NCBI GenBank assembly: GCA_963734495.1
Contig: CAVTHK010000013.1
Coordinates: forward strand, 192,001 to 256,000
DNA length: 64,000 nt
Direction: 5' to 3'
Source of the DNA: an uncultured Spirochaetota bacterium
GTDB taxonomy: Bacteria > Spirochaetota > Spirochaetia > SZUA-6 > CAVTHK01
A program made the translations under genes and the position numbers. The notes below the pieces were generated by a model. The model was not told the DNA's origin, did not search any database, and saw only the letters and a program-made list of their open reading frames with translations. The stretch's first letter is position 1, and each line of letters starts with the position of its first letter. Below, in pieces: positions 39,940-41,853 of the stretch.

Positions 39940-40794
39940 TCAATCCGCCTTCGTGTCCCCCCGCGCGTAATCCGCGAGCCTCGCGATCTCGGCCGGCCAT
40001 CGATCCTCGTCCGGCGTTTCGAGGATCAGGGGGATCCCGTCCGTGCGCGGGTCGCTCATCAGGCAGCGGAACGCCCCCCAGCCGATCTCGCCGTCTCCGA
40101 GCGGCGCGTGGCGGTCCACGCGGCTGCCGAGAGCGGTCTGCGAGTCGTTGAGGTGCATGCCCCTGAGGCGGCGCAGGCCGACGATGCGGTCCAGCTCCGA
40201 CAGGATTCGCTCGCAGCCCGCGCGCAGGTCGTAGCCGCCGGCAAAGGCGTGCGCGGTGTCGAGGCAGATGCCGATCCGATCCCCGTGTACCACACGCTCG
40301 AGCAGGCGGGCCAACTGCTCGAACGTCCGTCCGACGTTGGTGCCCTGGCCCGCGGTGATCTCCACGACCGCGGTCACGCCCTCGGTCCGATCGAGCCCGA
40401 AGTCGATCGATTCGGCGACGAGATCCAGGCACGCCTCGTCGCTCATCAGCCCCTTGTGGGCGCCCGGGTGAAAGTTCAGCATCGTGAGGCCCAGCTCTTC
40501 GCAGCGGCGCAGCTCGTCGACGAAGGCTTCGCGCGATTTCGCGAGGATCTTCGAGTCCGGAGCGCCGAGGTTGATCAGGTAGCTGTCGTGCGGGAGGATG
40601 CTTTCCGGACCGTAGCCGGCTTCGCTGCAATTGCCGCGAAACGCCGCGATCGTCTTCGCGCTCAGCGGCGACGAGCGCCAGGCGAGCTGGTTGCGGGTGA
40701 ACAGCGCGAACCCCGTGGCTCCGATAGCGCGGGCGCGCAGAGGCGCGTTCTCGACGCCGCCTTCGGTCGACACGTGCGGCCCGATGAGCTTCAC
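39940..40794 (-). CDS. nfo: Endonuclease IV
   Basis: GPHVS, PHDSYLINLG, NFHPG, CLDTAHAF, HLNDS, DRH, ILETP. Confidence 0.95.
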   Translation of the reverse strand: MKLIGPHVSTEGGVENAPLRARAIGATGFALFTRNQLAWRSSPLSAKTIAAFRGNCSEAGYGPESILPHDSYLINLGAPDSKILAKSREAFVDELRRCEELGLTMLNFHPGAHKGLMSDEACLDLVAESIDFGLDRTEGVTAVVEITAGQGTNVGRTFEQLARLLERVVHGDRIGICLDTAHAFAGGYDLRAGCERILSELDRIVGLRRLRGMHLNDSQTALGSRVDRHAPLGDGEIGWGAFRCLMSDPRTDGIPLILETPDEDRWPAEIARLADYARGDTKAD

Positions 40795-40802
40795 GAGCGC
40801 GC

Positions 40803-40831
40803 ATCATGAGCGGCGGCACTTCGGGAGTCAA
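40803..40831 (-). promoter_or_regulatory. nfo promoter (leaderless-type)
   Basis: TTGACT, 17 bp, CATGAT, 8 nt before GTG, no RBS. Confidence 0.55.
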
Positions 40832-40848
40832 GCGTGCGGGACGGAAGG

Positions 40849-40985
40849 AAAAAAAGAGAGAGGGGAAAGGCAAAAAAGCGGGGGTAGTAACACTACCCCC
40901 ATTTGCTGCAGCAAGGGAAACCGGGCAAGGAAAGGAGGTGAAACTTGCCCGCAGGGGAAAACCTTCAGGCTCCCCTCTCTCTTCA
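40849..40985 (-). ncRNA. Candidate structured small RNA with an anti-SD loop
   Basis: 13 bp closing stem, internal 8 bp and 9 bp hairpins, CACCTCCTTT in a loop, two U-tracts on the minus strand; not matched to a known family. Confidence 0.5.
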
Positions 40986-41018
40986 ACTGGACAAACAACC
41001 GAGTGATGGGAAGGTTAC

Positions 41019-41067
41019 AAAAGGAAAGGGCCGCGCCCTCCGACGGTCGGTCGAGAGGGTGCGGCCC
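41019..41067 (-). terminator. Terminator of the 41092..41787 gene
   Basis: GGGCCGCACCCTC...GAGGGCGCGGCCC followed by TTTCCTTTT on the minus strand. Confidence 0.7.
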
Positions 41068-41091
41068 CGCGTCCGCGGAAGCAGGGTTCGC

Positions 41092-41787
41092 TTACTCCAG
41101 CTTGGTGACCTTCAAATTGTCAAACGCGACCGCCAGGCTGTTGGTCCTCAACCCGATGTACTTGCCCGACTTGAGGGGGATGTCCGCCTTGAAGCGGTAG
41201 AAGAAGTTCAGGTCGAGCGGATCGTAGACCCGGATCTCCCCGGCATTGGTGTCGACGACGATCTTGACCGGAATCGTGATATTGAAAGCCTCGGGTCTCA
41301 TGTAGCTCGCCGGCAGCGGCAGGTTGTTGCCCGCCTTCATGATGTCACGCGGCGGGTACAGCCCCATCTGCGTGGGTCCCGTGCTCGCGTAGGCCTGGGC
41401 GAAGACGCCCGGCCCGTAGGCCGCTTTGTCCCAGGTGAGCCACAGCAGGCCCGAAGTCCCATCGCCCCAGCTGCGCCCCTTGCTCGGGTCCGAGGCCATG
41501 ATGTGGAAGCCGAACCCGCCGTAGTCGTCCTGGAAGCCGTCGACGTACTGGATGTCGAACTCGTACTGCATGACGCCCGACTGCTCGCAGGGGATGTTCA
41601 GGACCGACATCGTTTCCTTGGTGTCGGTCTGGTAGAGTTTGCCATCCTTGATCTGCCAATTGCCGGCCGCCACTATCCAGCCCGCGGGGAGCGGCCCGCT
41701 CGAGAAGCTGTTGATCAGCACGGTCTGACCCGAAACCATGCCGGCTGCCAGCAGGAAGGCCAATAGCCATACGAAGAGCCTTTTCAT
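41092..41787 (-). CDS. Secreted beta-sandwich (ConA-like) protein
   Basis: Signal peptide; GNWQIKDGKLYQ, GKYIGLRT...FDNLKV; GGAGGA RBS. Confidence 0.7.
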   Translation of the reverse strand: MKRLFVWLLAFLLAAGMVSGQTVLINSFSSGPLPAGWIVAAGNWQIKDGKLYQTDTKETMSVLNIPCEQSGVMQYEFDIQYVDGFQDDYGGFGFHIMASDPSKGRSWGDGTSGLLWLTWDKAAYGPGVFAQAYASTGPTQMGLYPPRDIMKAGNNLPLPASYMRPEAFNITIPVKIVVDTNAGEIRVYDPLDLNFFYRFKADIPLKSGKYIGLRTNSLAVAFDNLKVTKLE

Positions 41788-41853
41788 CGATCCATCCTCC
41801 CGTCCGACTGAGTTGGTTTATCCTGAATCCGGGTCATTATGGACCCGCCATTT

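Follow-up and report, generated by a model that had tools for sequence, protein, structure and literature searches.

What lies in the spacer upstream of nfo in an uncultured Spirochaetota bacterium, and on which strand would it be expressed? The spacer (positions 40795-41091, 297 bp) is flanked by two minus-strand genes and is part of a 64,000-nucleotide (nt) stretch of contig CAVTHK010000013.1, hereafter the window. We have found that it carries a conserved small RNA (sRNA) gene on the minus strand. A hairpin loop of this RNA repeats the anti-Shine-Dalgarno (anti-SD) tail of 16S ribosomal RNA (rRNA), and its promoter-like motif is shared with the gene of an extracytoplasmic function (ECF) sigma factor. 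We favour, with moderate confidence, the explanation that the locus encodes an ECF-sigma-dependent sRNA that acts in trans through its anti-SD loop. The original prediction for this locus had proposed a novel sRNA displaying such a loop. The parts of the predicted RNA and of its candidate promoter are as follows.

41019-41014, minus strand: -35-like element TGTAAC of the candidate sRNA promoter
40997-40994, minus strand: -10-like element TGTT, exactly 16 nt past TGTAAC
40988-40871, minus strand: predicted sRNA of about 115 nt (covariance-model match at 40983-40871)
40977-40973, minus strand: 5' strand of helix P1, GAGGG, pairing with 40917-40913
40972-40959, minus strand: hairpin P2, GAGCC-UGAA-GGUUU, weak and variable
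40951-40944 with 40929-40922, minus strand: hairpin P3, 8 bp in the window (7 modelled), bearing the anti-SD loop
40943-40930, minus strand: P3 loop of 14 nt, UUUCACCUCCUUUC, the anti-SD element and copy of the 16S tail
40917-40913, minus strand: 3' strand of helix P1, CCCUU, pairing with 40977-40973
40914-40903, minus strand: palindrome TTGCTGCAGCAA
40912-40901, minus strand: single-stranded linker GCUGCAGCAAAU
40900-40872, minus strand: intrinsic terminator, hairpin 40900-40880 followed by CTTTTTTG, with the U-tract at 40877-40872
40983-40971 with 40866-40854, minus strand: perfect 13-bp long-range stem
40855-40849, minus strand: second T-run, past the 3' arm of the 13-bp stem
either side of the loop hairpin: direct repeat GGTTT(T)CCC(C/T)TGC, in two copies, GGTTTTCCCCTGC and GGTTTCCCTTGC

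The element proved to be widespread in the order to which the bacterium belongs. BLAST searches with the spacer matched 24 of 41 genomes (its own and 40 others), 22 of the 24 coming from other families of the same order; a typical match in these relatives is a block of ~30 nt, 96-100% identical, over the loop hairpin. When the exact motif AAGTTTN{1,3}ACCTCCTTTCCTTG was sought in a collection of 185,579 species, with one genome for each, it was found in 42 DNA stretches, and all 42 are titled as metagenome-assembled genomes of Spirochaetota, Spirochaetia, Spirochaetales or Spirochaetaceae. Covariance models were then used, R1 built from ten sequences and R2 from 54 distinct sequences. The window element scores 64.5 bits (E ~1e-11) with R1 and 80.1 bits with R2, and it is the only match in its own genome (5.38 Mb, 83% complete); because it is single-copy, it is not a member of a repeat family, and a repeat or mobile element was rejected as its identity. 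R1 matched 56 of the 92 genomes of the order and seven of its eight families (f1, the family of the window, 1/1; f2, 23/25; f3, 2/5; f4, 2/2; f5, 7/8; f6, 15/21; f8, 5/5; f7, 0/24), many of the genomes being incomplete, so that "not found" is the right wording for a missing match except in closed genomes. Carrier genomes hold one copy each, apart from both f4 genomes, which hold two. Rfam 15 gave no match at gathering score anywhere in the window and only rRNA and transfer RNA (tRNA) in 39 related loci, and the predicted novelty with respect to Rfam thus stood. The best sub-threshold scores in 40600-41300 were 23.2 for ylbH (gathering score 50), 20.5 for mir-9201 (95.5) and 18.9 for sRNA154 (88).

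The fold of this element is maintained by compensatory change. The spacer folds better than its shuffles on both strands (z = -4.61 for the minus and -5.04 for the plus strand; 0/200 shuffles fold as well on either). Across the 54 distinct sequences three helices are supported, with 98.6% of cells paired and double changes in 19 of 22 pairs. Column shuffling never reached the observed pairing (0/500), and partners slid by 1-3 columns pair at 42-54%. P1, the family-wide closing helix of 5 bp, has double changes in all five pairs (e.g. GAGGC/GCCUC, GAGAC/GUCUC and GAGGG/CCCUU); P3, modelled with 7 bp, is paired in 100% of cells with double changes in 5/7 pairs; and the 10-bp terminator helix is paired in 98.9% of cells with double changes in 9/10. 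In the window the scan finds the terminator hairpin to have a 3-nt loop and 10 pairs, of which 6 are GC; its stem, GGGGAUAG...CUAUCCCC, is conserved among relatives. It is thus a GC-rich hairpin followed by a U-run and conserved with covariation, as is expected of a Rho-independent terminator. Covariation among homologues is what the original prediction had proposed to look for.

The segment between P1 and P3 is less regular. It forms a hairpin (at least 4 bp and at most -2 kcal/mol) in 31 of the 54 sequences, and for this reason P2 was rejected as a universal helix and is treated as a variable arm. A semi-conserved CGGAA(U) or UGGAU, which resembles a GGA protein-binding motif, occurs in or near this arm (the segment corresponding to 40972-40952) in f2, f6, f8 and part of f5; the window's own copy is without it. 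The palindrome TTGCTGCAGCAA is found in families f1 and f4 only, and a related linker, ...AAAGCAGCA, in f6 and f8.

The structural features named in the original prediction were all found where it had placed them: the perfect 13-bp stem, the 8-bp loop hairpin, the 12-bp palindrome, the hairpin at 40880-40900 with its U-tract, the second U-tract and the direct repeat. It had also described a purine-skewed island, and the plus strand over 40800-40949 does have an AT skew of 0.58-0.59 and a GC skew of ~0.29-0.30. The 13-bp stem is, however, not the closing stem of the family, which is the 5-bp P1. The 13-bp stem reaches past the terminator, its 3' arm lying beyond the terminator U-tract and its 5' arm overlapping P1. 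It is confined to the genus (the window and genome G001) and absent from other families, and because both arms are identical in these two genomes there is no covariation for it. We conjecture that it could form only in read-through transcripts, perhaps serving them as a processing stem or, with the U-run that follows it, as a back-up terminator.

The most constant part of the RNA is the P3 loop. Its core, CCUCCUUU, is the same in 54/54 sequences, and CCUCCUUU(C/U)C does not vary among the seven families. On its 5' side the loop reads UUUCA in f1, f2, f6 and f8, UUUU in f5, UUUUA in f3 and f4, and UUUGA in one f6 member. The predicted probability that the core is unpaired has a median of 0.997 and exceeds 0.8 in 50 of the 54 sequences. 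The 16S rRNA of the same genome ends in ...GGAUCACCUCCUUUCU, and the loop in the window shares 12 consecutive nucleotides, UCACCUCCUUUC, with this tail, displaying CCUCCUUUCC. Similar loops are seen farther afield. With R2, 11 genomes were matched in a sample of 151 from the class, 8 of them outside the order; four of these eight (L111, L113, L114 and L118) have a hairpin loop with CCUCCUUU, and the other four are mainly terminator matches. The promoter motif described below is present at L111 too. L114 has two CCUCCUUUU motifs. At L118 (1501-1626, plus strand), from another family of Spirochaetia, a different small RNA lies behind a TTGACA-type (sigma-70-like) promoter and has two hairpins with UUUC(U)ACCUCCUUUCC in both loops, the second hairpin doubling as the terminator. 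Anti-SD-loop RNAs seem to recur in Spirochaetia.

The candidate promoter links this RNA to a sigma factor. TGTAAC-N16-TGTT, with 16 variable nucleotides and an end that can be written TGTT[TA/N], stands upstream of 52 of 57 distinct instances of the sRNA; among the five exceptions, contig ends cut off two, and the other three are N17 or variant. P1 starts ~10-12 nt past TGTT, so that transcription would begin shortly ahead of P1; in the window, the usual promoter geometry would put the start at about 40989-40985. In the genome of the window, TGTAAC-N16-TGTT[TA] occurs once (0.38 expected), and relaxing the spacing to N15-17 adds one further TGTAAC site, at C3:232372 with N17. There, the ATG of an ECF sigma gene follows TGTT by 4 nt. 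This gene, at C3:232403-232921, encodes a protein of 173 amino acids that has Sigma70_r2, Sigma70_r4_2 and Sigma70_ECF domains and scores 89 bits with TIGR02937 (cut-off 42.9); the closest named model, ECF family GFO_1088/PG0214, scores under its cut-off. The original prediction had called TGTAAC a weak candidate for an ECF-type -35 element, and the finding of the same TGTAAC-N16/17-TGTT before a conserved ECF sigma gene strengthens that suggestion.

An ortholog of the sigma factor is present in 88 of the 92 genomes of the order, f7 included. Of 30 ortholog loci, 25 have TGTAAC-N16/17-TGTT before the gene; counted from the first base of the motif, the ATG is 29-34 nt away. In f7, a looser pattern finds the TGTAAC motif at 7 of 8 sigma loci; by reading of the output, 6/8 fit TGTAAC-N16/17-TGTT, one has N15 and the eighth has TGCT for TGTT. 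The motif is not enriched in number in five other genomes (2-11 occurrences against 1-8 for a reversed control). In these same genomes the sigma-gene site is present in 5/5, and the sRNA site in all four that carry the sRNA. Motif numbers per genome can be as low as 3 (G009), 3 (G028) and 2 (G016), and the sRNA and sigma sites are always among them.

ECF sigma genes are commonly autoregulated. The simplest reading is for this reason that TGTAAC...TGTT would be the promoter of the sigma factor itself, and the sRNA a conserved member of a small sigma regulon. The ATG of the sigma gene lies 3-8 nt after the -10-like box, and at so short a distance the sigma messenger RNA (mRNA) appears to be leaderless. 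The sigma operon (C3:232372-233625; L167:1973-3625; orthologous loci L168-L197) is conserved downstream of cysS. Its order is the ECF sigma gene, a gene for a membrane anti-sigma factor with an HxxxCxxC (zinc-finger) motif and a gene for an exported protein of ~170 amino acids without a family match. The operon occurs throughout the order, also in the family without the sRNA.

Is the RNA a gene in its own right or part of one of its neighbours? The features on either side of it are given below.

41787-41092, minus strand: upstream gene for a 231-amino-acid protein, whose start resembles a signal peptide and which matches nothing in Pfam or NCBIfam
41025-41075, minus strand: terminator region of the upstream gene, with a terminator-like hairpin at 41041-41025 (scan) and a longer GC-rich inverted repeat visible
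40831-40803, minus strand: sigma-70-like promoter of nfo, TTGACT-17-CATGAT, before the nfo GTG start
40794-39940, minus strand: nfo, the downstream gene (PF01261, E = 5e-59), with a GTG start at 40794

The unit is therefore bracketed, as predicted, by the terminator of the upstream gene (41041-41025) and the promoter of nfo (40831-40803). The hairpin and U-run read as a terminator on the minus strand only, since on the plus strand the A-run precedes the hairpin. The genes next to the RNA differ among relatives. In f1 (the window and G001) the RNA gene lies between the exported-protein gene and nfo, in f2 it is internal and stands before a different conserved gene, and nfo is found downstream only in two genomes of genus g1. 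Since the downstream gene is not conserved, a cis-acting leader is argued against. By Rfam scan, 23S and/or 5S rRNA genes lie directly upstream on the strand of the RNA in 10 of 39 related loci, the RNA following the 5S gene usually by 50-180 nt and once by ~1 kb. A tRNA gene lies upstream on that strand in 4 more of the 39, and one of these follows a 16S gene. Many copies of the RNA are within 100-300 nt of a contig end, which is expected beside unassembled rRNA operons and proves nothing. Together with its own promoter-like motif and terminator, this change of neighbours supports a free-standing minus-strand gene, as the original prediction had suspected. At L012-L017, the 5S genes of several relatives end directly in a run of 5-7 T, which suggests that the rRNA operon stops ahead of the sRNA promoter, in which case the sRNA would be transcribed on its own.

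Some observations concern the surroundings of the gene. The G+C content, 67.8% for the genome, falls to 51-58% in the spacer. The nfo gene is without a recognisable Shine-Dalgarno (SD) sequence, and because its sigma-70-like promoter ends only 9 nt before the GTG start codon, its mRNA may have little or no leader. The 231-amino-acid gene (41092-41787) is covered, at ~90-97% identity, by contigs from four metatranscriptome runs on soil (two studies), and close relatives of this gene are therefore present in RNA libraries. A small protein on the plus strand, where AAGGAGGTGAAAC-TTG resembles an SD sequence with a start codon, was considered and rejected: the frame after TTG is not conserved, stopping after 7 codons in one relative and running antisense into the neighbouring gene in the window.

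How might such an RNA act? We propose that the alternative, ECF-type sigma factor probably transcribes an RNA of ~115 nt from TGTAAC-N16-TGTT. The RNA would fold into the short closing helix P1, the variable arm P2 and hairpin P3, and end at the intrinsic terminator. If the RNA is abundant, its open P3 loop, CCUCCUUUCC, would then pair in trans with a set of mRNAs at their SD regions, where GAAA stands before GGAGG, and this pairing would block or compete with binding of the 30S subunit and lower translation whenever the sigma factor is active. That the loop would pair with ribosome-binding sites is suggested by its predicted accessibility and by the use of canonical SD sequences in this organism: in its genome, GGAGG peaks 9-14 nt before candidate ATGs (121 counts at -10 against a background of ~15), and an SD core is found at 21% of first candidate starts compared with 5% in a control window. 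Targets are therefore plausible.

Several results weigh against this explanation. No sRNA was found in the 24 genomes of family f7, many of them closed, even by R2 with laxer filters, nor, R2 included, in 5 of 10 genomes of genus g20, one of which is a single contig; judging from these genomes, the sRNA is dispensable. The pair counts given above come from an alignment fitted to the covariance model and from related genomes, which are not independent. When contigs of four metatranscriptome runs (two studies) were compared, chosen by a run search that gave 10 runs, each with 5-10% of the sampled words, they covered 41069-41815 and 35 nt at 40564-40598 only, and none lay over 40637-41038; because contigs are assembled, this gap by itself says nothing either way. 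A loop that matches every strong SD sequence gives little specificity. In the genome of the window, a match of at least 12 consecutive bases to the complement of the 15-nt loop was found only in the sRNA gene itself and the two 16S genes. The sequence GGAAAGGAGGTG occurs a few times per genome in the families that carry the sRNA. In one set of such sites in relatives, 2 of 15 had a start codon 3-15 nt past GGAGG and an open reading frame (ORF) that either reached 40 codons or was still open where the piece ended; in a second set, from which ten loci holding the sRNA gene itself were left out, 3 of 20 had a start 2-15 nt downstream and an ORF of at least 50 codons. The ribosome-binding site of the anti-sigma gene has no conserved complementarity to the loop, the longest run in 23 loci being 4-10 nt and mostly 4-7. 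Lastly, a search of the genome (83% complete) with PF17209 gave no Hfq; as a control, the same search was positive in 5 of 14 reference genomes.

The GGAAAGGAGGTG loci themselves were also inspected, and none of the 14 examined held a copy of the sRNA (0/14). At L162 (G082:C3:142850-143850), a GGAAAGGAGGTG site precedes an ORF that is stopped by an in-frame TGA after 41 codons. This ORF opens like what we take to be glycine reductase selenoprotein A, and the in-frame TGA would fit a selenocysteine codon.

The lack of a specific mRNA target in the genome and at the sites of relatives would suit a different role, in which the RNA is a decoy of the 16S 3' tail that titrates a protein or enzyme binding this tail, such as a 16S 3'-end maturation factor, a ribonuclease or a small-subunit protein. 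The identity of 12 loop nucleotides to the 16S 3' end, extending beyond the CCUCC core, speaks for such a decoy, as does the position of the gene right after 23S-5S genes in 10/39 loci, which suggests a link with ribosome production. We regard it as the main rival, but as doubtful. Identity outside the part that pairs with mRNA is not kept (UUUUCCUCC in f5, UUUUACCUCC in f3 and f4, UUUGACCUCC in one f6 member), and the sole constant part, CCUCCUUU(C/U)C, is exactly the part of the tail that does pair with mRNA. Moreover, the mimic sits in a closed loop rather than at a free 3' end, and the promoter motif is the one of a stress sigma factor rather than of rRNA genes. The leaderless appearance of the sigma mRNA and the place of the RNA gene at the end of an rRNA operon in many lineages can be accommodated by a bolder idea, which we consider unlikely, namely that the sigma factor and the RNA form a switch for translational reprogramming. 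The active sigma factor would drive production of a free copy of the ribosomal anti-SD tail, masking strong SD sequences across the transcriptome, and translation would shift towards leaderless or SD-less mRNAs, including the message of the sigma factor itself, which would need no SD sequence to be translated. The adjacency of rRNA or tRNA operons in 14/39 loci, taken with a loop predicted to be unpaired, could instead point to an RNA sponge or a helper of rRNA maturation, whose loop would pair, instead of with ribosome-binding sites, with some other purine-rich RNA such as a precursor-rRNA spacer or an sRNA containing GGAGG. In f1 and f2, however, the gene is far from rRNA genes and the loop is unchanged, and the genome of the window holds no complementary partner of at least 12 nt besides the sRNA gene and the 16S genes, which makes this role quite improbable.

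A cis-acting leader or attenuator of nfo would be expected directly upstream of the gene, on the same strand and with a terminator, as is the case here, and the 13-bp stem with the second U-run could act on read-through transcripts. Yet nfo is downstream only in the two g1 genomes, f2 has another gene in this place, in f3, f4, f6 and f8 it is rRNA or tRNA genes that precede the RNA, and the promoter-like site of nfo lies downstream of the element, so that we think a leader very improbable. The original prediction had offered, as its own alternative, a GGA-rich RNA on the plus strand that would serve as a CsrA sponge. The plus strand is indeed purine-rich and its fold is as good as that of the minus strand (z = -5.04, as given above), a CsrA gene is present in the genome, and the ylbH leader (RF00516) gives a weak match on the plus strand, where a hairpin likewise comes after an A-run and before a purine-rich segment of the AGGAGG type. 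That match reaches 23.2 bits (E = 0.011), far under the gathering score of 50, and no gene follows it on that strand; the element is not a member of this family. It is the minus strand that is marked out by the conserved promoter motif, by the terminator with its U-run and by the way the RNA is oriented with respect to rRNA genes, and on the plus strand the hairpin has an A-run before it and no T-run after it. Sponges of the CsrB/RsmZ type carry many GGA motifs in the loops of the transcribed strand, whereas by our own count the minus-strand RNA has a single GGA. We therefore give the sponge next to no credence.

The trans-acting anti-SD sRNA that we favour has parallels in other phyla. Passages of PMC4615179 and PMC10746234 describe the cuckoo or alpha-r14 sRNAs of alpha-proteobacteria (NfeR1 and the RSs0680/CcsR group) as trans-acting RNAs that carry the anti-SD motif CCUCCUCCC in hairpin loops; this motif is their sole strongly conserved sequence, and their stems vary by compensatory changes. 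According to the same passages, NfeR1 silences ntrB by pairing of its anti-SD loops with the ribosome-binding site, which blocks translation. In PMC4615179, where the group is defined, it is said to have 2-4 adjacent hairpins, each with the CCUCCUCCC loop motif. The spirochaete RNA differs from this definition in having one anti-SD loop, CCUCCUUUCC, modelled on the 16S tail, within the P1/P2/P3 fold, and it belongs to another phylum and has another type of promoter. The 16S 3' tail itself is alike in the 12 consecutive identical nucleotides UCACCUCCUUUC; it is, however, a free end, whereas the spirochaete copy is held in a closed 14-nt loop whose flanks vary between families. For the link to a sigma factor, the comparison is with enterobacteria. 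MicA, RybB and MicL are sigma-E-dependent sRNAs that repress translation of the mRNAs of abundant envelope proteins. They are unrelated to the spirochaete RNA in sequence and structure, depend on Hfq and have target-specific seeds at the 5' end or elsewhere, not copies of the anti-SD sequence. The likeness would lie in the sigma link, which we infer here from the shared promoter motif. For MicL, membership in the regulon of the envelope-stress ECF sigma factor of enterobacteria is described in PMC4102768.

A search of the open-access literature gave no description of such an RNA or of such a sigma promoter in spirochaetes. Anti-SD-loop sRNAs and sigma-linked sRNAs are already known as kinds of regulator. 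What is new is the family itself, its fold, a seed resembling the 16S tail, a frequent position after rRNA operons and the probable coupling to an ECF sigma gene that is itself probably leaderless. To our knowledge, very few regulatory RNAs have been identified in Spirochaetota, and none in these uncultured lineages of soil and freshwater. For them, sequence analysis has yielded a well-supported sRNA family, its probable regulator in the form of an ECF sigma factor and a mode of action that can be tested, and the covariance model and promoter motif are directly usable to annotate spirochaete genomes. We propose that this RNA corresponds, in spirochaetes, to the sigma-E-dependent sRNAs known from enterobacteria and to the alpha-proteobacterial sRNAs with anti-SD loops, and that it probably shuts down translation of selected mRNAs under stress. 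If this is true, a distant phylum would have evolved independently the linkage of an envelope-stress sigma factor to an sRNA that silences translation, and in an extreme form, with a seed that all but duplicates the anti-SD tail of the ribosome itself.

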